Below, one piece after another: positions 1,465 to 15,727 of a DNA stretch of 31,402 bases. The stretch spans positions 1 through 31,402 of IMG/VR virus record IMGVR_UViG_2645727991_000019, one strand, 5' to 3'. Every line of letters starts with the position of its first letter. Position 1 is the first letter of the stretch. This DNA is from a virus. Taxonomy: Duplodnaviria; Heunggongvirae; Uroviricota; Caudoviricetes. The notes below the pieces were generated by a model. That model was given only the letters and a program-made list of their open reading frames with translations. It was not told the DNA's origin and did no database searches. The position numbers and the translations under genes were made by a program.

Positions 1465-1943
1465 TATCCCGCCCCCGTCATACCCGTGAATTTAGTTGCC
1501 ATACTGCCCGCCTTACCGATGAGCGATTCCGCCTGTTTACCGATATCGCCATAAAGCGCGGCCAGTGATTCATCAACGCGGGTAAGTGACAGCGTAAAAT
1601 CAATTTTCCGGGGTGTGCCGTCTGCAAAGAAAATACTCCCTGTTTCACTCACCCTGCTGATGACATACATGCCGTAAATCATGCCAGTGCCATCCAGCAA
1701 CGGCCACGCCCGGCCTTCATCTGCCATCAGCCTGAGCGTGGTCATCGTCAGCTTTCCGCCGGTCAGTTCGGGATAAAGCACACCGGCAAGCGTCATGTTT
1801 TCCTCACCCACACCGAGAAACTGGTAGGCATCCCGTTTACCGATACGGGAATTTGACGGCCAGCGATAATCCGATTCACGCTGCATGGTCTGGTGTGGCA
1901 GCGTCTGGCGCATAAAAACAAACATACCTAACGCGAGCATCAT
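1464..1943 (-). CDS. U: Tail protein U
   Basis: 159-aa ORF between T and D; its stop is immediately adjacent to the D start, and size and position match P2 gpU. Confidence 0.88.
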   Translation of the reverse strand: MMLALGMFVFMRQTLPHQTMQRESDYRWPSNSRIGKRDAYQFLGVGEENMTLAGVLYPELTGGKLTMTTLRLMADEGRAWPLLDGTGMIYGMYVISRVSETGSIFFADGTPRKIDFTLSLTRVDESLAALYGDIGKQAESLIGKAGSMATKFTGMTGAG

Positions 1944-1957
1944 TTTTCGTCACCTCC

Positions 1958-4405
1958 TTAACCGTCATGCATCATGCTGGCACGGGCGCGCGCACGTTTA
2001 TCCCGCTCGTATTTTTCGAGCGCATCCTGTAACTGGCGGTCAAGCTGTGTCCCCGGCGCAGTACCGCCCGTCAGGTTGATGTGATATTCGTTTTTACTCT
2101 GGTCCACATAAGAGCGACCAGCCGGTGCCGTGACCGGCTGATAAGCCTGATAGCCTGCATAAGAGCTGGTCGCCGGAATATAACCGCCGGTGCCATACGT
2201 GGCGGCATGAGTCCTTGCGGCGGTCTGGTCAAGTGTGTCTGGCTCTTTGTTGATAACACCGAGTTTTTCCAGTACCCAGTCAATACCGCTGCGCAGTTTG
2301 TTGAACGCATTAAGCGGCAGCATCAGCGCGTCAGCCAGTGCCTGCCCGAACATGACGCCCGTGTCACGGCAACGGTTCAGGGTGTCCTGGGTGGCTTTGA
2401 CCGGGGCAATCAGGTTTTTAAACCACTGCCACGCGGCCTGTAACTTTTCACCCAGCCAGTCAAACACCGGCTTCAGTGGCGTGAACAGTTCTCCCACCGG
2501 CGCAAATGCCACTTTCAGCCCTTCAACCACACCGCCAAAGAATGCGCTGACAGGCTCCCAGTATTTACGGATAAGCAACGCCCCGGCGACAATTGCGGCC
2601 ACCACGGCCACAACCGGCCAGCTAATAGCCCCGATGGCGGTCATAACAGCACTGCCAACCGTCGTGAAGACTGCCCCCATTGCGCCTGCTGCCGCAATGA
2701 TGGCATTGATGCCGGTGATAACCGGCCAGGCTACAAGACCAATGGCACCGATGATGCCAGTCAGCGCCAGCGCGCCACCGGCAATGATGCCGATGGTTGA
2801 CGCCAGTGATTTGTTTTTCTGGATCCAGCCGTCGAGTTTTAACACATACTTTGTGGCCGTCTGCGTGAGCTTACGCAGCGCGCCTTCCTGCTGGTCAAAC
2901 AGGTCAGTCCCCACCGCCTCATAAGCGGACTGAAACTCTTTAAAGTCACCGCCTAGGTTGTCCTGCATGATATTTACCAGCTCGGCGGTCTTCCCGTCTG
3001 AGGCTTTAAACGCAGCGGTCAGTTTGTCCAGCTTTCCGGTTGAGGCGGCAGTCATCAGCACGGCGGCGGCTGAGCTGGCCTCCTCCCCGAAAATAGTTTT
3101 CATGTATTCAGCCTGCTGGGCAGTACCGAGCCGGTTTTTCTCAAAACTGGCCTGCATTTCTTTCAGAATGGTAAATATTGGCCGGGTGTTTCCCTTGCTG
3201 TCTGAGGTTTTCACTCCAAGCTCTTTGAGTGCATCCCATGCTTTTCCCGTCGGTGCCTGCAGGCGGCTTAACACGGTACGGCTTCCCGTCCCCGCCATTG
3301 AGCCTGTGATTTTTGCATCATGCAGCGCCCCGACCATTGCGGCGGTTTCTTCAATGCTGACACCGGCATTTTTTGCCACAGGTGCGGCATAGGTCAGCGC
3401 ATCGCTCATGCCGTCAAAATCGGCGGCGGTTTTGTTCATCGTCATGGAGAGAACATCCCCGATATGAGCGACCTTATCGTTTGAAAGCTGAAAGGCGGAT
3501 TTCATCCCCATCAGCAGGGCGGCGTTTTCTTCCATCGTGCGGCGGTTCGCCAGCGCCATATTCAGCGTGACCGGCGTTGCCGCCTGAATGGCATCAACAT
3601 CCCCACCCGCTTTCGCGATGATTATCTGTGCACCGGCCGCATCATCCGCCGAGGCGGCGGTATTGTCGCCGAGCTGGCGCGCCTGTTTGCGTAGTGCGGT
3701 CATTTCGGCGGAGTCTTTTGCCACTCCGAGCACGGCCTGCAATTCTGAGTTTTTCTGAGCAAACTCATAACCGGGCATCAGCAACTTAACTCCGGCCATC
3801 GTTCCCGCCGCCGCAATCCCCACACCGGCAGCGCCCACTGAGGCCATATTTCCTGCCAGTTCCTTTCCGGCCTGATAACGCTGTTTTACTGCGTTAAGTT
3901 TTGCCTGTTGTGCACTGACACGCGCCAGTGCGTCACGCTGACGGTTAAGCTGTGCGGTGGTTTCACTGATACGGTTTTTCAGTCCCTGCTCATCATGTGC
4001 AAGATTGCGGGTATTAATTCCCACAACGGCCAGTTCCCGCTGCTGGCGTTTAACGGAATCCGTCAGGCGGTTATATTTCGCCTGTAAGTCCTCCGCCGCA
4101 CGCTTTGCGGATTCCAGCACTTTCGCCTGAGCACGGGTCGGACGTTCGGTGTTTTTAAACTGTGTGGCAAGGGCTTCGGCCTCCTGCCGAGCCTTTTCAA
4201 GTGCATGACCAGTCACGGCGAGCTGTGCACTGGTCTTGCGAAATCCCTCAATACGGGATGCCTGACCGTTCAGCTCGCGCAGTGATTTTTGTGTTTCCCG
4301 GATATCCCCCGACAGCGATTTGCTCGCTGTGCGGATGGATTTAAACGGGCGGGATGCCTGGTCAACAGCCCTGAGCAATACCTGTAATTTTACATTGTTA
4401 CTCAT
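1958..4405 (-). CDS. T: Tail tape measure protein T
   Basis: 815-aa ORF with a coiled-coil-rich N-terminal part and Ala/Gly-rich hydrophobic segments, located downstream of E/E'. Length matches P2 gpT as I recall it. Confidence 0.92.
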   Translation of the reverse strand: MSNNVKLQVLLRAVDQASRPFKSIRTASKSLSGDIRETQKSLRELNGQASRIEGFRKTSAQLAVTGHALEKARQEAEALATQFKNTERPTRAQAKVLESAKRAAEDLQAKYNRLTDSVKRQQRELAVVGINTRNLAHDEQGLKNRISETTAQLNRQRDALARVSAQQAKLNAVKQRYQAGKELAGNMASVGAAGVGIAAAGTMAGVKLLMPGYEFAQKNSELQAVLGVAKDSAEMTALRKQARQLGDNTAASADDAAGAQIIIAKAGGDVDAIQAATPVTLNMALANRRTMEENAALLMGMKSAFQLSNDKVAHIGDVLSMTMNKTAADFDGMSDALTYAAPVAKNAGVSIEETAAMVGALHDAKITGSMAGTGSRTVLSRLQAPTGKAWDALKELGVKTSDSKGNTRPIFTILKEMQASFEKNRLGTAQQAEYMKTIFGEEASSAAAVLMTAASTGKLDKLTAAFKASDGKTAELVNIMQDNLGGDFKEFQSAYEAVGTDLFDQQEGALRKLTQTATKYVLKLDGWIQKNKSLASTIGIIAGGALALTGIIGAIGLVAWPVITGINAIIAAAGAMGAVFTTVGSAVMTAIGAISWPVVAVVAAIVAGALLIRKYWEPVSAFFGGVVEGLKVAFAPVGELFTPLKPVFDWLGEKLQAAWQWFKNLIAPVKATQDTLNRCRDTGVMFGQALADALMLPLNAFNKLRSGIDWVLEKLGVINKEPDTLDQTAARTHAATYGTGGYIPATSSYAGYQAYQPVTAPAGRSYVDQSKNEYHINLTGGTAPGTQLDRQLQDALEKYERDKRARARASMMHDG

Positions 4406-4825
4406 TCGTGTTTCCGCTTCGCCGGAGCGCCTTTTCGCGCCATGTGATGAGTTCGGTCAGGCTCATGGGATATAGTTCTGATGGCGGCCAGTGAAATATC
4501 ACTGCCACATCCGCCATCAGGTCATCGACCGAGAGATTTTTCGGAAACGTCACTGCACCGAGTTCGGCGACAAAAAACCGACCACCTTACCGGCCAGCGC
4601 CACAAGGTCAGGCAGCTCCAGCGCGGCGACTTCCTGCTCGGTCAGCATCGGTGCCGTCATGCGCGGCAGCACCTTAATCAGTGCATCGACTTCAGAGTTC
4701 GCGACCGCAGCCAGACTGACACCGCGCAGCGTCCCGGCATTGGGTTTCATCAGCGTGACCTGTTCGATAACCTGCTCACCACGCTTGACCGGATTGTCCA
4801 GGGTAATCACATTTTCTTTGTTCAT
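4398..4825 (-). CDS. E+E': Tail assembly chaperone E+E' (programmed -1 ribosomal frameshift product, about 142 aa)
   Basis: A -1 shift at the heptamer T_TTT_TTG (4577..4571 on the minus strand) opens a 57-codon extension (VAELGAVTFPKNLSVDDLMADVAVIFHWPPSELYPMSLTELITWREKALRRSGNTNE) that ends at a TAA at 4400..4398, overlapping the T start codon (4405). The arrangement parallels P2 E/E+E' and the lambda G/GT paradigm. Confidence 0.8.
4550..4825 (-). CDS. E: Tail assembly chaperone E (zero-frame product)
   Basis: 91-aa ORF starting MNKENVITLDNPVKRGEQ..., between FII and T. It ends 21 nt after a TTTTTTG slippery heptamer. Confidence 0.88.
   Translation of the reverse strand: MNKENVITLDNPVKRGEQVIEQVTLMKPNAGTLRGVSLAAVANSEVDALIKVLPRMTAPMLTEQEVAALELPDLVALAGKVVGFLSPNSVQ
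4571..4577 (-). other. Slippery heptanucleotide TTTTTTG for the E/E' -1 frameshift
   Basis: The plus strand reads caaaaaa at 4571..4577, so the minus strand reads T TTT TTG in the E zero frame (codons GGT TTT TTG). Confidence 0.8.
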
Positions 4826-4882
4826 GGTTTTCTCACTTCTGAATCGGGGGTTAACCGGTCAGCCTGGCTGACCGGATGAAAA

Positions 4883-5401
4883 TCACAGGCCGATATTGCG
4901 GCGGTGTTGCTCCAGCCGGTCGACGCCGTTCACCTTCTCAATCATGTTGATGGTGTCAATTTCGACCAGCTCCTTACCGTCCATCGTCAGCCGGAAATAG
5001 GTGCAGACCACGGAGATTTTCGACTCGGTGTCTTCTCCCTGTTTACCCTCACCGGTGTCGATTTCTTTCTGACGGCCACGCATGACCACTTCGACGGCCA
5101 CCGTTTCGCCGGTATCGTCGCGCTGGTAAGAGCCTGCAAAACGAATCGGCACGGCATCCACGCCGGTTGCGGCGTAAAGCTCCCAGATAACCGAATCCGG
5201 GAAGCCCCCGAGCGACCACTCCATTGACAGCGCATCGTCATCAAGGCCGAGGTCTACCGGTGCGCTGCCGTTCATCCCCGCACCGCGATAGTTTTCGAGC
5301 TTACGGGTCAGTTTTGGCAGCGTGACGGACTTTGCAACGCCCTGATAGCTGTAGCCGTTCAGAAAGACGTTCATTAACTTGAGTTTGCGCGGCATTGCCA
5401 T
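4883..5401 (-). CDS. FII: Tail tube protein FII
   Basis: 172-aa ORF immediately downstream of FI; position and length match P2 gpFII. Confidence 0.9.
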   Translation of the reverse strand: MAMPRKLKLMNVFLNGYSYQGVAKSVTLPKLTRKLENYRGAGMNGSAPVDLGLDDDALSMEWSLGGFPDSVIWELYAATGVDAVPIRFAGSYQRDDTGETVAVEVVMRGRQKEIDTGEGKQGEDTESKISVVCTYFRLTMDGKELVEIDTINMIEKVNGVDRLEQHRRNIGL

Positions 5402-5413
5402 CGGTCAGGCTCC

Positions 5414-6604
5414 TTAATTGCTGTTAACCGAAGTGACCAGATTTGCCAGGTATTTATCGGTAATACGCTGGCGCAGGGTCAGGTTTTCGAGAGGAGGCAC
5501 CGGGGTATAGTCGTAGTCGATATACAGTTTTCCGGCCTTGAGGGTTTCCGCATCGTTGGATTCTTCGCTGAACCAGCAGGTCGCATCCACGATATAGCCG
5601 TTTGTTTTCAGCTCACGGAATTTGGCATTGATGCCGTCAACGATGTCGCGAATCAGCGTTGCGGTGATGGGCTTGTCCACCGCCCACATGTGCGCCTCAG
5701 CCATCGTGTCGGCCAGCACCTGCGCGGTGCGGGTGTAGTTTTCAAAGAGGAACAGCGGGTCATCCGAGCAGGTACGGTTACCCCAGAAGCGGAAACCGTC
5801 ACGGCGAATCAGCGTTGTGACACCTGACTCATTAAGCAGGTCAGCATCGGTGCCGGACTCCTGCAAATCCCAGAATACAGAGGCACTGATGCCGGTAACA
5901 CCGTTTACCCCGACATTGGACAGCGTTTTATGCCATCCCTGCTCCTGGTCGATTCTGGCACGCAACCCCAGCGCACGGGCGGTGGCATACGCGGTGGCGG
6001 TGGTACTGGTGACCGTATCCCATGCGAGGAAATCCGGCCAGATGACCATCAGCTCACGCTGGCTGAAATTCTGGCGGTAGGCTTTCACCTCGGAAATGGT
6101 CTTACAGCCCCATGCGCTGATATATCCGAAAGCACGCAGCTTCTGACAGACGGATGCCAGTGCAACAGCCACCTCTTTGGTATCCAGTCCCGGCACACCG
6201 AGAATACGCGGTTTAACACCGGTTACCGACTCCGCCGCCAGCAGGGCTTTCAGTCCGGTGTACTGACCGTTTTCGTCGGTGGTGCCGATGATATTGGAAA
6301 CGGTCTGCGCGAGTTTCGTTTCTTCGTCGTCGCCGGTGCCGTCTTCCACGCGCACGACAACGGTGACCGGTTTTGACTGGTCAGCGATGGCCTGCAACGA
6401 TGCCGCCAGCGTGCCTTTTTTACCGGCCTTTGCAATTGCGCTCTGCACATTGGTAATCAGCACCGGTTTATTGAGGGGGAAGGTTTCCGCATCCGCATCG
6501 CTGGCCGTGCAGACCATGCCGACAATGGCAGTGGATACGGTGGAAATGACGCGGGTGCCGTCGTTAATCTCCAGCACCTGCACGCCGTGATGATAGTCAC
6601 TCAT
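5414..6604 (-). CDS. FI: Contractile tail sheath protein FI
   Basis: 396-aa ORF starting MSDYHHGVQVLEINDGTRVISTVSTAIVGMV..., upstream of FII; position and length match P2 gpFI. Confidence 0.92.
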   Translation of the reverse strand: MSDYHHGVQVLEINDGTRVISTVSTAIVGMVCTASDADAETFPLNKPVLITNVQSAIAKAGKKGTLAASLQAIADQSKPVTVVVRVEDGTGDDEETKLAQTVSNIIGTTDENGQYTGLKALLAAESVTGVKPRILGVPGLDTKEVAVALASVCQKLRAFGYISAWGCKTISEVKAYRQNFSQRELMVIWPDFLAWDTVTSTTATAYATARALGLRARIDQEQGWHKTLSNVGVNGVTGISASVFWDLQESGTDADLLNESGVTTLIRRDGFRFWGNRTCSDDPLFLFENYTRTAQVLADTMAEAHMWAVDKPITATLIRDIVDGINAKFRELKTNGYIVDATCWFSEESNDAETLKAGKLYIDYDYTPVPPLENLTLRQRITDKYLANLVTSVNSN

Positions 6605-6663
6605 CCGTTTAACTCCGTGGTTAATGGGTGAGTGATATTTTCAGTTGTGCCGGAGATGTCAGG

Positions 6664-7257
6664 CTATTTGTCCCGGTTGGCTAAGGGATGACACAATTTA
6701 TTCTTTGTCGCTGATGAGGGGAATTTTTTATAGAGCGTGGACAGGCCAATATCAAAAATCAGCGCCACGCGTTGACGTGATTCACCCGCAGCCAGCAACC
6801 GTCCTGCCTGTTCCCACTCACTCGCGGTGAGCTTCGGACGTCTGCCACCAATACGACCTTTAGCTCTGGCCGCTTCCAGTCCGGCGCGTGTCCGCTCGAC
6901 AATGAGTTCTCGTTCCATTTCAGCCAGGGCACCCATCACATGAAAGAAAAAACGCCCCATCGGCGTGCTGGTATCAATAGCATCCGTCAGGCTGCGAAAA
7001 TTAACGCCGCGTTCGCGCAGTTCCTCAACCAGAATGACCAGATGCCGCATACTACGCCCCAGCCTGTCCAGCTTCCAGACCACCAGTGTATCCCCCTCCG
7101 ATAATGTCCTGAGCAGTTTTTTCAGTCCCGGTCGGTCGGACTTAGTGCCGCTGATTTTATCCTCAAAAATCAGCTCACATCCTGCGCACTCCAGCGCGTT
7201 ACGCTGCAATTCCGTGTTCTGGTCATTTGTTGACACGCGTACATAGCCAATAAGCAT
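6664..7257 (-). CDS. Serine site-specific DNA invertase (Hin/Gin/Cin/Pin family)
   Basis: From the Met at 7257 the protein starts MLIGYVRVSTNDQNTELQRNAL..., the canonical resolvase/invertase N-terminus with the catalytic Ser in the VRVST motif. A strong AGGGGGA Shine-Dalgarno sits 5 nt upstream of this ATG. It lies immediately outside the left crossover site of the invertible segment. Confidence 0.9.
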   Translation of the reverse strand: MLIGYVRVSTNDQNTELQRNALECAGCELIFEDKISGTKSDRPGLKKLLRTLSEGDTLVVWKLDRLGRSMRHLVILVEELRERGVNFRSLTDAIDTSTPMGRFFFHVMGALAEMERELIVERTRAGLEAARAKGRIGGRRPKLTASEWEQAGRLLAAGESRQRVALIFDIGLSTLYKKFPSSATKNKLCHPLANRDK

Positions 7258-7312
7258 GAGCATCCCCCTGAATAAAAACCGGAGATGATGCCAGTTGCCC
7301 GTTATCTCTGCA

Positions 7313-7338
7313 TTTTCATAAACGTTGGTTTAGGAGAA
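7313..7338. repeat. Left 26-bp inversion crossover site (hix/gix-like)
   Basis: TTTTCATAAACG-TT-GGTTTAGGAGAA is an imperfect palindrome with a central TT dinucleotide. Its right half-site matches 11 of 12 positions of the half-site at 9189..9214 in inverted orientation. Confidence 0.8.
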
Positions 7339-7836
7339 GGCTCAGCATTGCCTGTTGGCGTACCTGTTCCGTGGCCCTCAGCCACTCCGCCAACAGGCTG
7401 GCTGAAATGCAACGGAGCAGCTTTTTCTGCTGAAGAATACCCGGAACTGGCAAAGGCTTACCCGACAAATAAATTGCCTGATTTACGCGGTGAATTTATT
7501 CGTGGCTGGGATGACGGACGTGGTATGGATACGGGGAGGGCAATATTATCCGCTCAGGGCGATGCCATACGTAATATCTATGGTGAGTTCAAGACTGTAA
7601 ACACCGAAAATTATTCAATATGGGAATCAGTAGGCTCTTTTAAGGGGGCAGTGGTGCCTTTGAACCCCTCAACGAACAATAGTTATTTCTCCTTAATCAG
7701 AAGTATGGTGACAGAAAGAACAGATGGCGCTGTTTACCCAAAAGTGATTGGCCTTGATGCTTCAAGAATTGTTCCAACTGCAAACGAAAACCGTCCACGT
7801 AACATCGCCTTTAATTATATTGTGAGGGCTGCATAA
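7313..7836 (+). CDS. Silent alternative tail-fibre C-terminal cassette (Sv'-like, tail-collar motif); promoterless in this orientation
   Basis: The open frame continues in phase from the GLGE codons of the crossover site and encodes ...VPVPWPSATPPTGWLKCNGAAFSAEEYPELAKAYPTNKLPDLRGEFIRGWDDGRGMD..., the classic phage tail-collar motif of Mu S and P1 S variable fibre parts. The ORF-track start at 7285 precedes the crossover site and is probably not a real start. Confidence 0.8.
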
Positions 7837-8429
7837 TGAAACCTGTTTTTGATGAAAATGGGCTGGCTACAGTGCCGGGTGATATGCGTTGTTTTTATTA
7901 TGATGCAGTAACGTCTGAATATACGGGCTGGTCTGATGAATATATTAATACTGGCGTAAGTATGCCCGCCTGTTCCACTGGTATTGACCCGGGCGAATAC
8001 ATTCCGGGGAAAGTGGCAGTATTTACGGGTAAGGGATGGAGCCATGAAGAAGACCACCGCAATGAGACTGTTTACTCAATCGAAAATGGCGCAGCTGTTA
8101 CAGTGGATTATATCGGTGCCATCAAAGACGGTTATGTCACGCTTTCACCGTTAACGCCATACGATAAATGGGATGGTGAGAAATGGGTGACAGATACTGA
8201 GGCACAGCATAGTGCCGCACTAGACGCGGCAGAAGCACAGCGCCAGTCGCTGATTGATGCTGCAATGGCTTCCATCAGTCTGATTCAACTGAAATTACAG
8301 GCCGGGCGGAAGCTGACGCAGGCAGAAACAACCCGACTTAACGCCGTGCTGGATTATATTGACGCGGTGACGGTAACAGATACCAGCACTGCGCCGGATG
8401 TCATCTGGCCTGAACTGCCGGAGGCGTAG
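7836..8429 (+). CDS. Tail fibre assembly protein (chaperone for the silent cassette, U'-like)
   Basis: 197-aa ORF directly following the silent fibre cassette (the ATG overlaps its stop). Its C-terminal region (LDYIDAVTVTDTSTAPDVIWPELPEA) resembles the C-terminus of the opposite-strand tfa (LDYLDTLELVDTSGAPDIEWPTPP). Confidence 0.82.
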   Translation: MKPVFDENGLATVPGDMRCFYYDAVTSEYTGWSDEYINTGVSMPACSTGIDPGEYIPGKVAVFTGKGWSHEEDHRNETVYSIENGAAVTVDYIGAIKDGYVTLSPLTPYDKWDGEKWVTDTEAQHSAALDAAEAQRQSLIDAAMASISLIQLKLQAGRKLTQAETTRLNAVLDYIDAVTVTDTSTAPDVIWPELPEA

Positions 8430-8841
8430 GCCATTCAATATCTGGCGCACCGGAAGTATCGACCAGTTCCAGTGTGTCCAGATAATCCAGCCACAAATTA
8501 TATTGCGCCAGTTCCTCACCTTTCAGGCGACCAATCGCCGCTTTACCAGGCCATTGCTTACTGTTTATGTATTCGTTGACCTGATTAATCAATTGCTGCT
8601 TTTCCAGTTCGGCTGCGGCAATTTGTTCCTCATGAGTTGGCGGTGGAATATCAATCCATGCAGGCATTCCGTCGATGACACCTCTGTATTTTCCTTCTGG
8701 TGCTTCCTTCATAAATTCGGCGGCAACAGTGTCGTCAATTTCGATTCCATCATCGGGCCATTCGCCGGATTCCTGATAAGCGATTTTAAGCTCCACAGGG
8801 AAAAACGCATTTTTATCGGCACTGAAAATATATTTCTGCAT
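8401..8841 (-). CDS. Tail fibre assembly protein (chaperone for the currently expressed fibre, G/U-like)
   Basis: 146-aa ORF immediately downstream of H, converging on and overlapping the 3' end of the plus-strand tfa; it carries the conserved tfa C-terminal motif. Confidence 0.85.
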   Translation of the reverse strand: MQKYIFSADKNAFFPVELKIAYQESGEWPDDGIEIDDTVAAEFMKEAPEGKYRGVIDGMPAWIDIPPPTHEEQIAAAELEKQQLINQVNEYINSKQWPGKAAIGRLKGEELAQYNLWLDYLDTLELVDTSGAPDIEWPTPPAVQAR

Positions 8842-8843
8842 TT

Positions 8844-10028
8844 CTACCGTCCTATCGAAATATAACTGAATCTGTATTGCTGTGAGATATCACTGGTTGC
8901 CACACGCCACGCTGAATTACTGATATGTTCAAAATTTACAGACAAAACCTGCAGGGCAGGATTCGACGGGTCTGACTGAACGGCATCAGACATAACACTG
9001 ACTGAAACCATCGGCTGATTAGGGAATGGTATAGGGAAGTGTCCACTGATAAAGCGGGTCGTGTTTCCTGAAAAAGTGCCAAACTGAACAATATATCCAC
9101 CTGGTAGCCTGAACCATCCCGAACCAGAAGCGAATGCTCCCATATCCGGTATCTGATTATCTCCTGTGCCCACATCCCTTTTCGCCGCTTCTCCCAAACC
9201 AAGGTATGCGAGAAGACCAGCTACATCCTTTCCACTCAAATGAGTCAGCGTCTCATCCAGTGGCTGCTTACCTGACAGCGCATTGTTAATGGTGGCGCTG
9301 AATTTCGGGTCATTGTTGATAGCTGCGGCAATTTCTTTCAGTGTGTCCAGCGTGTCAGGGGCACCGTTAATCAGAGCGGTAATAGCGGCCTGTACAAACG
9401 CAGTGGTCGCAATCCGCGTGGTGTTATTTCCTGCGGCAGGCGTCGGCGCTTTTGGTTCTCCGGTAAATGTCGGATTATGTTTCTGTGCATACTGGGTATG
9501 AGGGTCCTGTGCGGCAATGTGGTTTCTCATCTGGTCATCCACATACAGCTTTAATTCCAGGACTTCATCATCCACGTATTTACGGGTCGCCAGTACCACC
9601 GACGGGTCGATTTTCAGCGTGATGGCTTCGGTATTCGTGACAACCAGAATCATGCGGATAGTCTGGGTACGACCGCTGCCTTCCTGCAACTGCGGTTTGT
9701 ACGTTTCCGGGCAGTTCGCCACCGCAATGAGTACGCCTTCATCATCATAAAGCCCAATCTCACGGATCCAGAATCCGCCCTCGTTCTCAGGGATGATTTG
9801 CTCCGCAATAATCTGGCTCTGGTTGTTCGGGTCAACACTCAGAAGATTCAGCGGCGCGATGCGTTTCTGGTTAATCAGTTTTGTCTGTGCCGGGTCTGGT
9901 GTCGGCAAGACACCATTCGCATCACCAACGGCCATTTGCGTCAGATTCAGCTTACTGCCGAGCATCGTCGCGTTAGCCAGCCGTGCTGCGCCCTGATTAG
10001 TCAGAATGGCGTAGTATTTCACTGTCAT
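8844..10028 (-). CDS. H: Tail fibre protein H (constant N-terminal part fused to the currently expressed variable C-terminal cassette)
   Basis: The N-terminus MTVKYYAILTNQGAARLANATMLGSKLNLTQMAVGDANGVLP... is the conserved P2-family fibre N-terminal domain. The reading frame passes through the crossover site at 9189..9214, where it encodes AYLGLGE, and continues into the variable part. Confidence 0.88.
   Translation of the reverse strand: MTVKYYAILTNQGAARLANATMLGSKLNLTQMAVGDANGVLPTPDPAQTKLINQKRIAPLNLLSVDPNNQSQIIAEQIIPENEGGFWIREIGLYDDEGVLIAVANCPETYKPQLQEGSGRTQTIRMILVVTNTEAITLKIDPSVVLATRKYVDDEVLELKLYVDDQMRNHIAAQDPHTQYAQKHNPTFTGEPKAPTPAAGNNTTRIATTAFVQAAITALINGAPDTLDTLKEIAAAINNDPKFSATINNALSGKQPLDETLTHLSGKDVAGLLAYLGLGEAAKRDVGTGDNQIPDMGAFASGSGWFRLPGGYIVQFGTFSGNTTRFISGHFPIPFPNQPMVSVSVMSDAVQSDPSNPALQVLSVNFEHISNSAWRVATSDISQQYRFSYISIGR
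9189..9214. repeat. Right 26-bp inversion crossover site (hix/gix-like) inside H
   Basis: TTCTCCCAAACC-AA-GGTATGCGAGAA; its left half-site resembles the gix/hix half-site consensus and is the inverted copy of the half-site at 7327..7338. Confidence 0.8.
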
Positions 10029-10636
10029 GCGTTTACTCTCAGGTTATCAATTAAATGAATGGCCGAGGCCGGGAAATAATCCCCTCCGACAATAATGGCC
10101 TCCGGGGTGTAGGGATAAACCGTCAGGGCGTCGCCGTGATAGCATCCCGCACCGGCAAAAATGTTGCCGGTTGTACTTAAACTGATAGCCAGTCCCGTCA
10201 GATGGCGGCTTGCCGGTTTTGCATCAGCAACGAGGCGCTCCAGCTCCTGATACATTTCCTCGGTAATACCCTGCTCAAGCACGCCGACAACGATACGGAA
10301 CGTCCCCGGCTCCTCGTTGAGCTGCCACCACTCCCTCACCTCAATCAGATAGCCGAGTGGCTCCACCACACGGCGAATCGCACCAATAGTGCCCTTATGG
10401 CAGTGAATGAAATACGCATCGCGGATAACAGCGCGTTTTGTCGCTTCCGGCCACTTATCATCCCAGCGGTCAACCGAAAATGACCACGCCAGCCACGGCA
10501 GCAGATTTGCCGGACAGGTATCCGGGTTCCACAGCTCACGAATACTGACCGGCGTTTTTTCAATTTCCGCACAGGCTTTTGCGGCGGCAACTTCAAGCAG
10601 TGATGAGCCGGTCGGCAGCAGTCGCGAATCACTCAT
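10025..10636 (-). CDS. I: Baseplate/tail protein I
   Basis: 203-aa ORF between J and H; its stop overlaps the H start (ATGA) and its position matches P2 gpI. Confidence 0.88.
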   Translation of the reverse strand: MSDSRLLPTGSSLLEVAAAKACAEIEKTPVSIRELWNPDTCPANLLPWLAWSFSVDRWDDKWPEATKRAVIRDAYFIHCHKGTIGAIRRVVEPLGYLIEVREWWQLNEEPGTFRIVVGVLEQGITEEMYQELERLVADAKPASRHLTGLAISLSTTGNIFAGAGCYHGDALTVYPYTPEAIIVGGDYFPASAIHLIDNLRVNA

Positions 10637-11537
10637 CCGAGCCTCCGGTCACGACGCGGTATTCGGTACAGAAAGACGCCTGCGTACTGTTGAGCACGAT
10701 GTCGGCCAGTGGTGCAGCCAGTTCGACACGCTGCACACCTTCCACATGCAAAGCGGCATAAATGGCAGACAGACGGATGTCACGCCCCAGCCGGTGCTGT
10801 GCCGTGATATACGCTTCCAGTTTTTTCACGGCGGCAGCGCGGATGGGTTCGCTTTCGGGACCAGGGTAAAGGTAAAGCGTGGCGTTTATCTGGTATTCAA
10901 CGATGGCGGCAGACTGCACGGTCACGCGGTCGGCCACCGGCCTGACGTCCTCGCCATTAAGGGCGTTACGCACCACAGCCAGCAGGTCTTCGGATGCGAC
11001 ACCGTTATTTTCACGTGACAGTACGGAGATGGTGACGCAGGCCGGAGACGGACTGGTGACAGAGATATCCGCGACACGCCCGTCGGCACTGCGACCATGA
11101 TACTGATAGGCTCCCACCGACCCGGCGACGCTTAAGCCCTCAAACGCCTGCTGAATACGCAGACGATAATCGGTGTCAGATTCCATCACTGCCGGTGTCG
11201 GCGGGATAGTCGAATCATCTGCCGGAGTGATAATCAGGCGCGTGGTGTTGTAATTGGCACCAATCACATCAAGGTCATTACCGGCGGCACAGGCCAGCAT
11301 TACCGCCCGTGCGGCCTCATTCACACGCTGACGCCAGATAAGCTCACGATAAGCATTTTCCTCCAGCAGTTTGACGAGAGGCTCGGATTCCAGCGTCAGG
11401 GTACGGGCGACCGCCTCCTGCTGGTCTTCCGGGTAAAGGGAAATCAGTGTCGCCTTGCGTTCGGCAAGAATGGTTTCAAAGTCCAGCTCCTCGACCACAT
11501 CCGGTGCGGGTAGCTGGTTCAGGTCGATAATCGGCAT
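10629..11537 (-). CDS. J: Baseplate assembly protein J
   Basis: 302-aa ORF between W and I; position and size match P2 gpJ. Confidence 0.9.
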   Translation of the reverse strand: MPIIDLNQLPAPDVVEELDFETILAERKATLISLYPEDQQEAVARTLTLESEPLVKLLEENAYRELIWRQRVNEAARAVMLACAAGNDLDVIGANYNTTRLIITPADDSTIPPTPAVMESDTDYRLRIQQAFEGLSVAGSVGAYQYHGRSADGRVADISVTSPSPACVTISVLSRENNGVASEDLLAVVRNALNGEDVRPVADRVTVQSAAIVEYQINATLYLYPGPESEPIRAAAVKKLEAYITAQHRLGRDIRLSAIYAALHVEGVQRVELAAPLADIVLNSTQASFCTEYRVVTGGSDE

Positions 11538-11541
11538 GGTT

Positions 11542-11889
11542 TCAACTCACAGGGATGGTTAACGAAAGTGGCTGGCCGGTGTCGTTGTGCTGACCGGTTA
11601 ACGTGACCGTCATTCGCCCGTCAAAACTGCGCGCCGTGGTGACGGATGACAGGGTGACGCGGGGTTCCCATTTCAGCACCGCCATGTAACAGGCGACCTT
11701 AATCTGCAACTCAAGCGCCGGGGTCTGCGGCTGGTCAATCATTGATGCCAGCAACGAGCCGTAATCACGACGCATCACCCGTGAGCCGACCGGTGTGCGC
11801 AGGATATCGCCGATACTCTGGCTGATATGCTCAAGGTCAGTGACCGTCAGGCCATCACTGCGATTCATTCCGAGATAACGCGCAGTCAT
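11542..11889 (-). CDS. W: Baseplate protein W (gp25-like)
   Basis: 115-aa ORF between V and J; position and size match P2 gpW. Confidence 0.88.
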   Translation of the reverse strand: MTARYLGMNRSDGLTVTDLEHISQSIGDILRTPVGSRVMRRDYGSLLASMIDQPQTPALELQIKVACYMAVLKWEPRVTLSSVTTARSFDGRMTVTLTGQHNDTGQPLSLTIPVS

Positions 11890-12521
11890 AGAGGTCCCCC
11901 TGTTGTGCCGCCACTGTCGCCGGGGTGTTTATGGGTATGCAGTACCTTACCGTTTGATGAGAGTTCACCGCCGGTGTGTTCAATGTTGCCGCGCATCGTC
12001 CCGCCCTTCTGTACTTCCAGCGTGCCGGTAATCAGCCTGTTGGTGCAGACCACCTCCGGTGTGTCCAGGGTGACGCGGGTTGACGCTTTCACCATGACCA
12101 CCGGCACCGTGGCGGTAACAGAATCAGAAGCCGTCACGCTGGCCGTTTTAATTCCGCTTACCGTCAGTGCACTGGTTTCGGGTTCATACTCAATCACCGC
12201 CCCGTCAGGGAAACGGATATGCAGGGCATCAGCCGACGCAGACGGCGCAGGGTTATCGCCGGAATAAATCCCCGGCAGAACAAACGCCGTGTCGAGTTCG
12301 CCGCCCACGGACAGAATCAGCACCTGTTCCCCCACGGAAGGTGCCCACCATGTGCGCGAACGCCCGGCGCGATGGGTCAGCCACTGAAGCCAGTCGGTGC
12401 ACATGCCGCCGGTCTGCACACGGCAGCGACCGGCGTTAAGGTCGGTTTCGACGACAAGGCCGGTACGAATCATGTTGCGCAGTGCGCGCGCGAGTTCCTG
12501 AATATTTGCGAGAGTGTTCAT
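11886..12521 (-). CDS. V: Baseplate spike/assembly protein V
   Basis: From the Met at 12521 the protein starts MNTLANIQELARALRNMIRTG... (211 aa), matching the P2 gpV N-terminus as I recall it. The longer ORF-track start at 12557 is probably not used. Confidence 0.88.
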   Translation of the reverse strand: MNTLANIQELARALRNMIRTGLVVETDLNAGRCRVQTGGMCTDWLQWLTHRAGRSRTWWAPSVGEQVLILSVGGELDTAFVLPGIYSGDNPAPSASADALHIRFPDGAVIEYEPETSALTVSGIKTASVTASDSVTATVPVVMVKASTRVTLDTPEVVCTNRLITGTLEVQKGGTMRGNIEHTGGELSSNGKVLHTHKHPGDSGGTTGGPL

Positions 12522-12598
12522 AACGGGAAGGATGCCGCTGGATGATACCAGCAGCAATCATGGAGGATTCTGTCAGCTGTGATACAACATAATAAATA

Positions 12599-13354
12599 TT
12601 AGTTGTAGCACTTCTCTATAATCTTCATACACTCCTCATGAGCTAAATCATGGCTGTCAAATTCTTTATTAAAAAAGAAGAAAAACGCCTTCTTAACCTG
12701 AGGCATTTCAATAAAAATAAATTCATCAACCTTATGAAAGAAATGAAAACTCTTGTTTGATGTTTCAAAAACCATCAAAGAATTATGTTTTTTATCCTTC
12801 CATTTCGACATCAGATTGCGTCGCGATTTTCTTATAATCCTGAAGACATCCTCCGGTGTCGTATCGACATTCCCCCAAAACATTGCAACCGGGAAGTTTG
12901 CAAGGAAAGGGATATAATCCCCCCCTTTATACCTGAGAAAGCGGGTCCGTAAATCCATTAATTGCAACTTAAAGCCCATGTATTGCAACCACCATATGAT
13001 GCAGTCATATTCATAATCTGTTAACTCATCGCCCCTCTTTTCCGTAAGAAATTTCTTCAGGTTATACTCAAACGCTCCCAGCAAATCAGAATTGCACACT
13101 CTGCATGCTGGTACAGTAGCTTTAATGTAATGAGTTGACTGATTATTCTTTTTATTAATTAAAGATTTTTCAGCATTTGACTCAAAGGCCCACTGAGGAA
13201 TAATGTGCTCACGAGTAATATCGTCAGAACTCCCGCATAACACACATATATCAGCATTATGGTCAGCAATAATACAATCCATAACTTTCTTTTGAGAATG
13301 CTTTACTCTTTTTCTCAAAATGGAAAACTTTTTATCCACAAACACCCGTCTCAT
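12599..13354 (-). CDS. AT-rich accessory gene encoding an HNH-motif nuclease-like protein, at the S-V junction (P2 orf30 position)
   Basis: The protein contains CVLCGSSDDITREHIIPQWAF ... CRVCNSDL, i.e. CxxC, (D/E)HIxPQ and CxxCN, the HNH beta-beta-alpha-metal signature (compare Cas9 HNH DHIVPQSF). GC content is markedly lower than in flanking genes. Its start ATG overlaps the S stop codon (ATGA). An alternative start at the internal Met (MDCIIADH..., 13282) is possible. Confidence 0.7.
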   Translation of the reverse strand: MRRVFVDKKFSILRKRVKHSQKKVMDCIIADHNADICVLCGSSDDITREHIIPQWAFESNAEKSLINKKNNQSTHYIKATVPACRVCNSDLLGAFEYNLKKFLTEKRGDELTDYEYDCIIWWLQYMGFKLQLMDLRTRFLRYKGGDYIPFLANFPVAMFWGNVDTTPEDVFRIIRKSRRNLMSKWKDKKHNSLMVFETSNKSFHFFHKVDEFIFIEMPQVKKAFFFFFNKEFDSHDLAHEECMKIIEKCYN

Positions 13355-13809
13355 ATAACATCTTTCGATAGAATCACTAATAACTCCCTTTCTATCAATT
13401 GTATAGATTCCTTGTCAAAACCAAATAACTCACGAACAGGATATTCCACCACAGCACTATTACGCCCCGGCTTATCCCTAAGCCCTAATTGATGTACTCG
13501 CGCAATTCGTTGTACTCCGCTGGCAAACGCCACCACCGCCGCACTCTCGCTACCTGTTGCTTTCATAAACCGGTTAGTGCGTAATTTCACAAACATTTCC
13601 CGCTTTATCCGGCCTTTCTTATTTCGTACTGGTTGGTTTTTTCTCGGTACATACGGCGTACCATCCGGGGCTTTTTGTAATTTAATTCGCTGCTGCTGGC
13701 GCTGGCGCAGCTTCTTCGCAATATCTACCGCCAGTCGCCGACGCCCTGACGGTGACAGCGACTCAATCAGTCCGGTCAGCCGGTCTTCAAAACGCTTAAA
13801 CTCATTCAT
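13351..13809 (-). CDS. S: Tail completion protein S
   Basis: The protein starts MNEFKRFEDRLTGLIESLSPSGRRRL..., and its position between R and V matches P2 gpS. The last 30-40 codons lie in AT-rich sequence continuous with the downstream accessory gene. Confidence 0.88.
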   Translation of the reverse strand: MNEFKRFEDRLTGLIESLSPSGRRRLAVDIAKKLRQRQQQRIKLQKAPDGTPYVPRKNQPVRNKKGRIKREMFVKLRTNRFMKATGSESAAVVAFASGVQRIARVHQLGLRDKPGRNSAVVEYPVRELFGFDKESIQLIERELLVILSKDVI

Positions 13810-14269
13810 CCCACTTGCTCACCAGTTCGCCATTGATATAAAGCTCCATCGGGCGGGTGACCGGCTCCGGCGGCGGGGGTTCCGGGATATTCTTCACATG
13901 CAGCGCGCCGTCCACCTCACTGACCAGCGTGCGCTCGGTCAGCATCAGGCTGATGCTGATATCAAAGCTGCTGTCATTGTTGATGTCTGCATAAAACGTG
14001 AAGCCCTTTTTCTGGCCTGCGTCGGTGGTCATGATGTCGGGCTGATTTTCCCGCAGCCACGCCAGCACCGGCACAATGAGCAGGTCAAAATCACCGGTAA
14101 AGTCGGTCACAATCACATTGAGCGTGTAACGCTTTTCGAATGACAACGACGTCGCCAGTGTGGAGGCAATACTCCCGTTATCCACGAATATCCGCAGCAT
14201 CTCGGGGCTGGTTTTCAGCACCGTGACGGCATCAGTCAGCGCCCTGCGCAGGCTGTCGGGTTTGAGCAT
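13802..14269 (-). CDS. R: Tail completion protein R
   Basis: 155-aa ORF between the lysis genes and S; position and size match P2 gpR. Confidence 0.88.
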   Translation of the reverse strand: MLKPDSLRRALTDAVTVLKTSPEMLRIFVDNGSIASTLATSLSFEKRYTLNVIVTDFTGDFDLLIVPVLAWLRENQPDIMTTDAGQKKGFTFYADINNDSSFDISISLMLTERTLVSEVDGALHVKNIPEPPPPEPVTRPMELYINGELVSKWDE

Positions 14270-14522
14270 CGTTTTCGTCCTGACAGTGTTTAATCATTTT
14301 TACCTGGCTGGCACAGCGTGCCAGCGCGTTCTCAAGCTGCCGGATATCGGCACTTAAATCGCCGTTCGTCTGCGGGTCAATGCCCGGCATCGGGCAAAGA
14401 CTCACTTTCGGGCAGGCGTTGTGGACAATCACTGGCGTCGGTGCAGGCCGGGCGCTGGTGCAACCGGCGCACAGCATCAGGCAGGCCAGCGCCGTACCAG
14501 CGGCGAAAATCTTCGTTTTCAT
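14232..14522 (-). CDS. lysC: Outer-membrane lipoprotein spanin LysC (Rz1-like)
   Basis: 96-aa ORF with an N-terminal signal-like segment and a lipobox-like Cys cluster (LACLMLCAGCTS), followed by a Pro-rich region. It starts inside lysB in another frame and extends into the start of R, as in P2. Confidence 0.8.
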   Translation of the reverse strand: MKTKIFAAGTALACLMLCAGCTSARPAPTPVIVHNACPKVSLCPMPGIDPQTNGDLSADIRQLENALARCASQVKMIKHCQDENDAQTRQPAQGAD

Positions 14523-14802
14523 TCAGTAACCCCGTGATGGTTTTCTCGCGCTGTGCTTCACGCTTCGCCGCGTTCTCCAGTTCCTGACGCAGTGCCACCT
14601 GCGCCAGCTCGTTTTTGTCTGCTCTGGCGAGGGCAACATGAAGCTGATTTTTCAGCATGGTGATGGTCGTCTGCTGCCCGCTGGCGACGTTGTTCGCCCT
14701 GTCCAGCGAGGTGCGCAGGCTGGCGTTTTCATGCTTCGCCAGAAACAGACCGGCCACCGCCAGTGATAACAACACAACCAGCACAATCATCAGCTTTGAC
14801 AT
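14377..14802 (-). CDS. lysB: Inner-membrane spanin LysB (Rz-like)
   Basis: 141-aa ORF with an N-terminal transmembrane segment (LMIVLVVLLSLAVAGLFLA) and a coiled-coil-like periplasmic part; lysC is embedded in its 3' region. Confidence 0.85.
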   Translation of the reverse strand: MSKLMIVLVVLLSLAVAGLFLAKHENASLRTSLDRANNVASGQQTTITMLKNQLHVALARADKNELAQVALRQELENAAKREAQREKTITGLLNENEDFRRWYGAGLPDAVRRLHQRPACTDASDCPQRLPESESLPDAGH

Positions 14803-15215
14803 GGTTCCCGCCCCTCAAAACGCTGACGACAGGCCGTGCATATCAACCGGAAGAACACCGACGCCACGAGGTAAATCAGCGCGGTAAAAATCCACCCGGC
14901 AGCGACCAGCGAGATAAACGTCGCCACCATCACCACCAGAGCCGCCGCCCGTCTGCGCCACGGCACCGGCTGCAAAAACAGCGACGCGACAATCTTCACG
15001 GCCAGCGATTCCGGCGGCAGCTCCCGCCCGTAGCGTTCCAGCACATACTCAGTGGCATACACGCCGACACCACCGGCAACCACACAGATAACCGTCGCCA
15101 GAATCGCCCAGGCGGCGACAAAATTGACGGCCACGCTCTGCGGGTAAATCAGGGACAGTGCCAGCATCAGCGCCAGCGACACGTTCAGCATCAGTGAAAG
15201 GGATAATTTCTTCAT
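14790..15215 (-). CDS. lysA: Lysis timing membrane protein LysA
   Basis: 141-aa ORF with multiple predicted transmembrane segments, downstream of the endolysin gene K; position matches P2 lysA. Confidence 0.82.
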   Translation of the reverse strand: MKKLSLSLMLNVSLALMLALSLIYPQSVAVNFVAAWAILATVICVVAGGVGVYATEYVLERYGRELPPESLAVKIVASLFLQPVPWRRRAAALVVMVATFISLVAAGWIFTALIYLVASVFFRLICTACRQRFEGREPCQS

Positions 15216-15229
15216 GGTGTTTACTCCGT

Positions 15230-15727
15230 TTAAGCCGGTACGCCGCCAGCGGTACGCCAGACGGTGACCAGTTTTTCCAGTGAATGCTCACGCTGACCGT
15301 AACCGGCACCCGGCAGGGACGCCCAGATATTGCGACAGCGTGAAATGGCGCGCTCAATGCGTCCCGCCCGGATGTCATCCAGTGCACCGCGTTCGCGGAT
15401 CAACTGAATGGCGAGCCTGTCCTGTGACAACGGACTGAAATCAGGCAGGGCAAGCTGTTTGCGGTAATGCGGCCAGAACAGGTAAAGCTGCTGATAGCGA
15501 CCGGAGGCCGTGGATTTTTCACCGCGACGGTTAAACACCTTCGCCGGTCGGCCATGCGCGAACGGGTGGTCACTGTAGTCGGTGAAAATTTCCGGCTTCC
15601 CGTCCAGTCCGGTGACTATCACGTCATAGCCCCGGTTTTTCGTCAGCGGATGGTTCGCCGTCCCTTCGGACACGGCCAGCATGTCGAGAAAGGCGGCGAT
15701 ATTCTGATGCGTGTTAATTACCGGCAT
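15230..15727 (-). CDS. K: Endolysin K (phage lysozyme)
   Basis: 165-aa ORF directly downstream of holin Y, starting MPVINTHQNIAAFLDMLAVSEGTANHP...; position and size match P2 gpK. Confidence 0.9.
   Translation of the reverse strand: MPVINTHQNIAAFLDMLAVSEGTANHPLTKNRGYDVIVTGLDGKPEIFTDYSDHPFAHGRPAKVFNRRGEKSTASGRYQQLYLFWPHYRKQLALPDFSPLSQDRLAIQLIRERGALDDIRAGRIERAISRCRNIWASLPGAGYGQREHSLEKLVTVWRTAGGVPA

Follow-up and report, generated by a model that had tools for sequence, protein, structure and literature searches.

Organization of the locus

The window (the whole stretch of 31,402 nucleotides that was analysed) aligns to phage P2 over positions 1-6684, 10200-12521, 13585-22725 and 25569-29552, in P2 order and at 94.7-97.2% identity. 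In a blastn comparison with the P2 genome (NC_001895), homology was found over positions 1-6684 (97.2%) and 10200-12521 (94.7%), and none was found in between. Since the alignment to P2 breaks off at 6684 and starts again only at 10200, the stretch that stands for the last part of I and for H, G and Z/fun is foreign to P2. This agrees with an earlier note on this DNA, in which the locus was described as a graft onto a P2 backbone: outside the module both the gene order and the sequence are those of P2. The same note gave the G and Z/fun region as the part replaced. These genes are indeed gone, but the replacement is larger and also takes in the last ~95 nt of I, the whole of H and the sequence as far as the pF activator site. 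The GC content is 0.46-0.50 over positions 7201-9600, versus ~0.53-0.58 in the neighbouring tail genes. The module is located in a complete late operon, and the phage is apparently intact. The features of the locus are listed in Table 1.

Table 1. Features of the tail-fibre module, with positions in the window.
Feature	Position	Strand	Description
Module foreign to P2	6685-10199		Stands for P2 12630-17571 (end of I, H, G, Z/fun)
DNA invertase gene	6664-7257	minus	Pin/Gin-type serine recombinase; 197 aa from ATG at 7257
Candidate Fis-dependent recombinational enhancer	7173-7236		Putative; 64 bp in the 5' part of the invertase gene
Invertase-proximal (left) crossover site	7313-7338	plus	26 bp, TTTTCATAAACGTTGGTTTAGGAGAA; outer and inner halves TTTTCATAAACG-TT-GGTTTAGGAGAA
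Alternative H C-terminus, unexpressed	7327-7836 (incl. stop)	plus	169 aa from GLGE; tail-collar type; Pfam Collar, 8e-16
Chaperone (tail fibre assembly protein) of the silent cassette	7836-8429	plus	197 aa; Pfam Caudo_TAP, 3e-26
Chaperone of the expressed cassette	8401-8841	minus	146 aa; Pfam Caudo_TAP, 2e-34
H variable C-terminus, currently expressed	8844-9200 (incl. stop)	minus	118 aa from GLGE; gp53-like
H-internal (right) crossover site	9189-9214	minus	26 bp, minus-strand reading TTCTCGCATACCTTGGTTTGGGAGAA; halves TTCTCGCATACC-TT-GGTTTGGGAGAA
H constant N-terminal part	9215-10028	minus	271 aa; Pfam Phage_tail_fib N-terminal (PF12571), 1e-62

Two convergent cassettes, each composed of a fibre C-terminus and a chaperone, occupy the region between the two crossover sites. 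The two chaperone genes overlap by 29 bp at their 3' ends, an arrangement that is the same in the e14 element and in Escherichia phage pro483. The constant part of H shares 98.5% identity with its counterpart in pro483 and only about 41-44% with P2 H; it remains joined to the late V-W-J-I-H operon. The variable end that it carries at present matches Pfam Gp53-like_C (4e-08) at H residues 307-394. The alternative C-terminus forms part of the plus-strand ORF 7285-7836. A scan of positions 6500-9400 gave promoter-like sites at chance level, and eight terminator-like hairpins were found in the same interval, versus 2.7 expected. PADLOC and Pfam searches with the low-GC cargo ORFs returned essentially nothing, and a search of NCBIfam with five proteins gave no family above the cut-off.

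The two crossover sites and the predicted inversion product

The earlier note had proposed that two 26-bp imperfect palindromes lie in inverted orientation at the positions given in Table 1, and both repeat and pattern searches confirmed these coordinates. The pair constitutes the longest inverted repeat of region 6600-9400 (I1, 27 nt, 78% complementary). The other inverted repeats in the segment (I2-I25) are short, 70-88% complementary and devoid of site architecture, and were treated as chance. Both sites have the architecture of the invertase class, that is, 26 bp made up of 12-bp half-sites and a 2-bp core, inverted with respect to each other and with identical cores. The central dinucleotide is TT at both when each site is oriented with GGTTT to the right. 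As read from the sequence, the outer half matches the reverse complement of the inner half at 9/12 positions in the left site and at 10/12 in the right site, and the inner halves of the two sites are one base apart (A versus G). Within the window, the inner half-site GGTTTRGGAGAA is present at the two crossover sites only. The two-site pattern has no further match in the 31.4-kb window and matched none of 100 shuffles. A third crossover site was sought in the window, and just the same two matches were obtained even when three mismatches were allowed in the full pattern or one in the half-site. A multi-inversion system like the three-repeat locus of enteropathogenic E. coli (EPEC; see below) was considered and ruled out, since two sites alone are present in the window.

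Relatives of the sites are found both in close prophages and in e14. The H-side site has identical copies in four relatives (L001-L004) and in pro483. The invertase-proximal site is the same at 25 of 26 positions as the e14 site beside pinE. The e14 repeat TTGGTTTGGGAGAAGG, which is an experimentally documented inversion site for PinE, PinQ and PinR (PMC12529663), is contained in the left site with one G-to-A change; it agrees with the left site at 15/16 and with the right site at 15/15 overlapping positions.

It had also been claimed that both sites encode G-L-G-E in frame. This holds at both inner half-sites, in the frames of H (8844-10028, minus strand) and of ORF 7285-7836 (plus strand). 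In agreement with the exchange of the H C-terminus that the earlier note had predicted, inversion in silico joined the alternative end in frame to the constant part and gave a stop-free H' of 445 aa, the current H being 394 aa long. The accompanying switch of the cognate chaperone is likewise to be expected from the gene order, in that a Caudo_TAP gene follows each variable end. One C-terminus falls into the Pfam family Collar and the other into Gp53-like_C, which makes it likely that receptor or host specificity differs between the two states.

The invertase and a candidate Fis enhancer

As proposed, an invertase gene lies just outside the segment, 55 bp from the left site, and its product contains Resolvase (Pfam, 2e-52) and HTH_7 (1e-12) domains. 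The start at 7257 is the RefSeq choice in identical relatives; an upstream in-frame ATG at 7263 (ORF 6664-7263) would make the protein 199 aa. Residues 1-182 match the Gin structures in PDB (3uj3/4m6f) with an E value of 1e-94. The catalytic Ser9 in YVRVSTNDQ and the LDRLGRS motif are both kept; the defect of the catalytic serine that the earlier note had named as evidence against an active switch is thus absent from this full-length protein. For Hin, contacts with Fis and the enhancer are made by Q151, R154 and L155 and by the basic residues 47, 48 and 51 (PMC3798978). The Salmonella Hin/hix/Fis system, which serves as the mechanistic model, employs an invertase of the same serine family, and its Fis-contact and basic helix-B residues are kept in the window invertase, which has EWEQAGRLL (the same as Gin) and the basic residues K46, K47 and R50. 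The last ~11 codons of the gene lie in the P2 pF activator-binding region. The protein is apparently intact, and Gin-like, in every feature examined.

Inversion would presumably need Fis together with an enhancer inside the invertase gene, near its 5' end. 15-mers of the form G-N13-C are present at nucleotides 22-36 of the coding sequence (in 17/21 family genes) and 71-85 (19/21), Mu gin included, and a third such motif is found at nucleotides 94-108. Measured from the crossover centre, the first two motifs are centred at ~96 and ~145 bp. The recombinational enhancer has been described as 65 bp long and located ~100 bp from hix (PMC3798978). In view of the distances of the motifs from the crossover centre, the 64-bp candidate region fits this description, and its distance from the crossover site is the same as in the Hin/hix system. 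Synonymous-codon identity was 0.55 over codons 1-37 versus 0.38 elsewhere; of 141 blocks of equal size, just 2 scored as high. Other causes can also lead to an excess of synonymous conservation at the start of a gene, and the candidate Fis sites are G-N13-C motifs and nothing more elaborate.

The leader ORF beside the invertase gene

ORF 7285-7836 consists of a 14-aa leader, MMPVARYLCIFINV, followed by whichever variable domain adjoins the invertase gene. The cassette on this side may not be silent: in the lysogen, the ORF starting at 7285 could be expressed alone, yielding a free receptor-binding protein that masks surface receptors against other phages, host defence being then the main role of the module. 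In favour of this, an in-frame ATG at 7285 lies upstream of the crossover site; the same leader exists in e14 (and another form of it in Mu), and in genomes with the inverted state the corresponding gp53-like ORF, of 133 aa, is annotated in RefSeq. In e14, the inversion product StfE2 blocks adsorption of T2 (PMC12529663), and the free protein would act like it. Against this, 4 of 12 close family members have stop codons within the leader ORF although they retain the ATGCCA motif, and the module belongs to a late operon that is complete, in a phage that is apparently intact. Because the leader is broken while the motif persists, ATGCCA is, from this pattern of conservation, more likely to be a cis-acting element belonging to the invertase gene. 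The stop codons in these four relatives also rule out the TGGCAT motif as the start of a generally conserved leader ORF. Overall, we regard defence as the main role as very unlikely, and the same applies to expression of the ORF as a free, receptor-masking protein. If it were true, the switch of a complete P2-like prophage would be at once a host-range device of the phage and a defence toggle of the host.

Both orientations are present in public genomes

Complete E. coli genomes were examined for the two arrangements, each of which had to extend over at least 80% of a 3.4-kb query. The arrangement of the window was present in 19 genomes and the one obtained by inversion in silico in 22. E. coli F163 harbours two copies that match at 100% over 6356 bp, the sole difference being that the 1803 bp between the sites are exactly inverted in one relative to the other. 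In E. coli 2018-02-2CC the predicted recombinant sites are found, the A-variant inner half-site being joined to the H-side outer half-site, and its H' is identical to the predicted product at 444 of 445 positions. The alternative allele is fused to the same constant part of H in at least 24 complete E. coli genomes, where it was recovered as a single 874-nt BLAST piece with at most 98.2% identity. Draft assemblies give a consistent picture. In 11 assemblies of family members, a contig ends at most ~200 bp upstream of the invertase gene; in eight of these the end lies inside the crossover site or within ~25 nt of it. Contig ends at a crossover site are expected when reads include both orientations. 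Judged from these genomes, the switch works in near-identical prophages, and the present copy probably still inverts.

One may ask whether the copy in the window is instead a locked relic that inherited the sites and the invertase and no longer inverts, through asymmetry of the half-sites or a silent regulatory defect, so that only the gp53-like fibre is made. The single mismatch between the inner half-sites is compatible with this, and some relatives are clearly damaged. An example is the T22 'P2' record, whose invertase gene is shortened to 495 nt and whose invertase-proximal site has an H-type outer half. However, the invertase of the window is of full length with the examined catalytic and Fis-contact residues kept, the core dinucleotides are identical, and the ORFs of the silent cassette and of its chaperone are intact. 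Moreover, the A-variant half-site is present on the H side in E. coli 2018-02-2CC, and Mu gixL also has A at this position. A half-site found on the opposite side of the switch in a natural genome has therefore passed through recombination. A locked relic is consequently considered improbable.

The two orientations might also have arisen without the invertase, by RecA-dependent homologous recombination at short inverted repeats, since the repeats are near-identical over 14-15 bp. Fifteen base pairs are, however, very short for efficient homologous recombination, and the breakpoints lie precisely within a 26-bp site that has the Gin/Pin architecture and adjoins a dedicated invertase. In addition, the orientation of e14 is fixed in pinE and pinQ mutants (PMC12529663). 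Recombination of this kind is extremely improbable as the source of the inverted forms.

Comparison with known inversion systems

The earlier note had likened the locus to the Mu G and P1 C segments. The likeness to Mu G holds in principle: there too, a constant N-terminus is combined with one of two variable C-termini and their chaperones, the sites are 26 bp long and the invertase gene, gin, lies just outside. The G segment differs in its length (~3 kb), in its much longer variable parts and in the phage backbone, and although the site architecture is alike, the gix half-sites and core (TC/GA) differ from those of the window with its TT core. As to the nearest relative, the comparison has to be amended: by sequence similarity, and in a comparison that covered e14 and Mu, the closest relative is the P segment of e14 with PinE, to which the window invertase is 85.3% identical, versus 77.5% for Mu Gin. 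The P segment (stfP-tfaP/tfaE-stfE), carried by a cryptic prophage of E. coli K-12, has the same four-gene layout. Its variable parts and chaperones are 55-63% identical to those of the window (58% for StfE and the alternative C-terminus, 63% for TfaE and the silent-cassette chaperone, 55% for TfaP and the expressed-cassette chaperone), and the segment between cores is 1797 bp as reported, versus 1876 bp in the window. The surroundings are different. Whereas e14 is a defective lambdoid element with StfP as the constant part, the window has a P2-type H N-terminus in a complete P2-like late operon, and its invertase, unlike PinE, is extended at the C-terminus by 13 aa that the pF promoter region encodes. 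Hin differs from all of these coding switches in that it inverts a promoter, whereas the segment in the window contains coding cassettes.

The same module is present in the Peduovirus relatives pro483 (KR073661) and the O157:H43 T22 'P2' prophage (KC618326) and in many E. coli prophages in RefSeq. These have the order sheath, invertase, cassette pair, H and I as in the window, identical sites and flanks that are 95-98% identical, and a DNA invertase and tail fibre genes have already been annotated in them. They differ in their alleles of the variable cassettes; for example, positions 7578-7770 of the window are unmatched in relatives L001 and L002. Every piece of the cassette set of the window was found in other genomes. 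In P2-like prophages of EPEC E2348/69, inversion has been detected by sequencing, and fibre variants coexist in culture (Goldberg et al. 2014, PMC4272514). As in the window, an invertase and inverted repeats in a P2-like prophage lead there to alternative tail-fibre C-termini; one of the EPEC loci has three repeats and four variants, versus two sites in the window, and the likeness is one of architecture. The architecture has thus already been deposited (pro483) and inversion in a P2-like prophage has already been demonstrated experimentally, so that this is a known kind of device.

Proposed mechanism and significance

Together, these results make it highly probable that the locus is a Pin/Gin-type site-specific inversion switch for tail-fibre, and hence host-range, variation in a P2-like (Peduovirus) prophage of E. 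coli. In the proposed mechanism, the invertase would bind both 26-bp sites, cut at the central TT and exchange strands, so that the ~1.87-kb segment between the cores (7327-9200) flips. In the present state, the constant part of H (271 aa) would be made with the 118-aa gp53-like C-terminus, followed by the 146-aa chaperone. In the inverted state, it would be joined in frame to the 169-aa tail-collar C-terminus to give a 445-aa fibre, followed by the 197-aa chaperone. A population of lysogens would then release two kinds of particles with different receptor specificity, and the host range would presumably differ between the two states.

As a discovery the switch carries little weight: it is textbook phase variation, annotated in P2-like phages and demonstrated in the EPEC prophages and in e14. 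It does have practical consequences. Regions 7285-7836 and 7836-8429 are to be annotated as an alternative fibre end and its chaperone, and not as separate tail proteins, and when such prophages are assembled from short reads, the assemblies tend to break at the crossover sites. For this prophage, two fibres, and not one, would have to be weighed when its host range is predicted.

Gene order and crossover sites

Positions 6000-11000 were read and their ORFs listed, which gave a minus-strand order of tail sheath gene FI, an ORF of 197/199 aa, a 2-kb stretch, the tail fibre gene H, and genes I, J, W and V. The 2-kb stretch consists of two convergent pairs: the tail-collar cassette ORF and its chaperone gene on the plus strand face, on the minus strand, a second chaperone gene and the 3' end of H.

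Features of the switch region and of two other segments of the window
Feature	Position	Strand	Basis or remark
Tail sheath FI	5414-6604	minus	ORF listing
Invertase ORF, 197/199 aa	6664-7257/7263	minus	Pfam Resolvase + HTH_7
Candidate enhancer, 64 bp	7236-7173		spanned by first two G-N13-C 15-mers
Tail-collar cassette ORF	7285-7836	plus	Pfam tail-collar domain
Invertase-side site	7313-7338	plus	TTTTCATAAACG-TT-GGTTTAGGAGAA, oriented with GGTTT to the right
Chaperone of collar cassette, 197 aa	7836-8429	plus	Pfam Caudo_TAP (tail fibre assembly chaperone)
Chaperone of present-state cassette, 146 aa	8401-8841	minus	Pfam Caudo_TAP
H, 394 aa	8844-10028	minus	Pfam P2-type fibre N-terminal domain + gp53-like C-terminal domain
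H-side site	9189-9214	minus	TTCTCGCATACC-TT-GGTTTGGGAGAA, oriented with GGTTT to the right
I	10025-10636	minus	ORF listing
Three overlapping ORFs of the 22755-25568 island	23056-24120, 24095-24529, 24508-25389	plus	
Cox-domain ORF	29549-29920		
Integrase ORF	30407-31402		

A repeat search identified 7313-7339 and 9188-9214 as the longest inverted repeat within 6600-9400. A degenerate pattern spanning both sites had only two matches in the window and none among 100 shuffles, and the inner half-site by itself likewise occurred only at those two positions. In each inner half-site, the frame of the neighbouring coding sequence reads G-L-G-E. Serine invertases of the Hin/Gin mechanism require an identical central dinucleotide to religate after the 180-degree rotation; a central TT is common to both sites. 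Repeat search, pattern search and translation thus bore out every detail that the earlier note had given of the sites: their pairing, inverted orientation, shared half-site and in-frame G-L-G-E. With the invertase described below, the observation of sites, frames and invertase is confirmed.

The invertase and a candidate enhancer

The proposed Hin/Gin-type invertase gene does lie just outside the segment: besides its Resolvase and HTH_7 domains, the product matches the Mu Gin structures 3uj3 and 4m6f (E 1e-94) across residues 1-182. A catalytic-serine defect, named beforehand as an argument against the switch, was looked for; S9 is intact within YVRVSTNDQ, and the LDRLGRS motif is also kept. 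At H106 and M114, which we take to be positions where changes render Gin or Hin Fis-independent, alignment to Gin showed wild-type residues. The protein also has an EWEQAGRLL stretch and basic K46, K47 and R50, the counterparts of Hin Q151, R154, L155 and positions 47, 48 and 51, which are conserved uniquely among Fis/enhancer-dependent invertases (PMC3798978, which also mentions Hin H107Y, one of the changes to Fis independence).

Alignment of 21 distinct family invertase genes (66-100% protein identity, Mu gin included) gave a synonymous-codon identity of 0.55 for codons 1-37 versus 0.38 for the remaining gene, and of 141 contiguous blocks of equal length only 2 reached that score. The minimal signature of a Fis site is a G-N13-C 15-mer. 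Three such 15-mers are conserved, at CDS nt 22-36 (17/21 genes), 71-85 (19/21) and 94-108 (18/21), the first two being centred ~96 and ~145 bp from the crossover centre. The Hin/Gin-type inversion reaction is described in PMC3798978, where the enhancer is 65 bp long, has a Fis site at each end and lies ~100 bp from hix. As judged from its sequence, the candidate enhancer in the 5' end of the invertase gene is consistent with this description, short of proof.

Upstream of the invertase gene, a TGGCAT(C/G)(A/C)T motif is present at 7285-7293 (minus strand TGGCATCAT). Its spacing is fixed: in 12 members of the family, Mu among them, it precedes the start of the invertase by ~30-40 nt, and it may serve the invertase promoter as an extended -10 element. 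The motif is overlapped by a weak hairpin with a T run behind it, and its opposite strand provides the ATG of ORF 7285-7836. Conceivably this invertase-proximal ORF is expressed alone in lysogens and acts like StfE2, the inversion product of the e14 prophage; we give this a low probability because not all of the family conserves the leader ORF: it is broken in 4 of the 12.

At ~40 loci (L044-L090) in many Beta- and Gammaproteobacteria there is a 185-aa serine recombinase that hardly varies and shares 64% identity with the invertase of the window. The DNA upstream is identical among these loci and lacks a gix-like site. The protein is probably a transposon or plasmid resolvase that has spread widely and has no connection with tail-fibre switching.

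Both orientations occur in related genomes

Exchange in silico at the central dinucleotide produced one open frame in which the tail-collar cassette follows the 271 constant residues of H. The resulting inverted-state fibre has 445 aa and is directly followed by the 197-aa chaperone; present-state H has 394 aa, with the gp53-like domain at its end and the 146-aa chaperone after it. This uninterrupted product, each end having its own Caudo_TAP gene, supports the proposal that inversion swaps the H C-terminus together with its cognate chaperone.

Positions 6400-9800 (3.4 kb), as they are and inverted in silico, were compared with 5,426 complete E. coli genomes. The native arrangement was found in 19 genomes, covering at least 80% of the query, and the inverted one in 22 (96-98% identity). 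E. coli F163 (NZ_OY754349.1) holds both, at 4.64 Mb (L003) and 1.77 Mb (L004); these 6356-bp loci are base-for-base identical except for an exact reverse-complement of the 1803 bp between the 26-bp sites. Since the window's collar-cassette allele is unlike that of the top matches, the predicted junction of cassette and constant H was itself searched, and it aligned without interruption in at least 24 genomes (up to 98.2% identity). E. coli 2018-02-2CC has TTCTCGCATACC-TT-GGTTTAGGAGAA at the H side and TTTTCATAAACG-TT-GGTTTGGGAGAA at the invertase side. Recombination between the two sites of the window is predicted to give exactly these sequences, in which the A/G polymorphism has changed places, and the fibre is identical to the in-silico product at 444 of 445 positions. 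The recombinant sites confine the exchange to the interval from the outer half-site to position 6 of the inner one, consistent with the central dinucleotide.

Among 11 family members in draft assemblies with a contig end within ~200 bp upstream of the invertase gene, eight (L012, L015, L019, L023, L024, L025, L028 and L040, from Citrobacter, Yokenella, Mangrovibacter, Kluyvera, Trabulsiella and Mixta) have that end inside the crossover site or at most ~25 nt from it. Such breaks would be the usual mark of reads holding both orientations.

In the T22 'P2' prophage (L007, KC618326; locus 1860-2451) the invertase gene is annotated at just 495 nt and the invertase-proximal site has an H-type outer half (TTCTCGCATACC), which makes its two sites perfect inverted repeats of one another. 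The pattern points to decay of the switch or to a secondary rearrangement.

Nearest relatives and extent of the graft

The earlier note likened the switch to Mu G or P1 C. The working principle is indeed that of Mu G with Gin, but the nearest relative is the e14 P segment, the invertase being 85.3% identical to PinE and 77.5% to Mu Gin. The e14 segment has the same four-gene layout, its chaperone genes overlap convergently by 29 bp as in the window, its invertase-proximal site matches at 25 of 26 positions, and it shares 55-63% identity with the window in the variable parts and the chaperones. The e14 repeats TTGGTTTGGGAGAAGG and CCTTCTCCCAAACCAA are inversion sites mapped by experiment and used by PinE, PinQ and PinR (PMC12529663). 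In GenBank, the same module is present in a P2-like backbone in phage pro483, with a 'DNA invertase' already annotated, and in the T22 'P2' prophage; in EPEC P2-like prophages, phase variation by inversion was shown by sequencing (PMC4272514).

Blastn against P2 (NC_001895) substantiated the graft onto a P2 backbone, which is 94.7-97.2% identical outside the module and interrupted at four places. G and Z/fun are replaced as claimed, but the graft is larger: 6685-10199 stands for P2 12630-17571, comprising the final ~95 nt of I followed by H, G and Z/fun. Constant H has only 41-44% protein identity to P2 H, which indicates that the whole fibre gene arrived with the module. GC content is 0.46-0.50 across 7201-9600 versus ~0.53-0.58 for the adjoining tail genes. 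The sheath-side junction is tight: the invertase ORF enters the pF (Ogr/activator) binding region, placing the junction within a control site of a late promoter. P2-type promoter DNA supplies the last ~11 codons of the ORF (KLCHPLANRDK), which accounts for the 13 aa by which the protein exceeds PinE at its C-terminus. In the sheath-operon pF region (6664-6701), TTGTG and GCCAACC are unchanged from P2 and the spacer that separates them is different.

Other segments also depart from P2. Between S and V, a low-GC island (12522-13584; 0.37) carries a 251-aa ORF (12599-13354, minus) replacing P2 orf30, for which Pfam gave only a sub-threshold HNH_5 match (E 0.008) and PADLOC none; the spot is known to vary in P2, and the island may represent accessory cargo. 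A 2.8-kb island (22755-25568; GC 0.33-0.40) stands in place of tin and old. Its ORFs had no Pfam match above the cut-off, the third had a weak PADLOC match to PDC-S54 (1.6e-7), and the island may be uncharacterised anti-phage cargo. The immunity/integration end (29553-31402) has only patches of 66-70% identity to P2; it is of another immunity and integration type on the same backbone.

Together, these results support an invertase-driven tail-fibre switch, corrected as to nearest relative and graft extent. Judged by sequence, the switch appears intact in every test made here, and the comparative evidence indicates that it was recently active in this lineage. For the window's own copy we infer activity, Fis dependence and an effect on host range. 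Elements of this kind are already known, and short-read assemblies of such switches break systematically in or beside the invertase-side crossover site.
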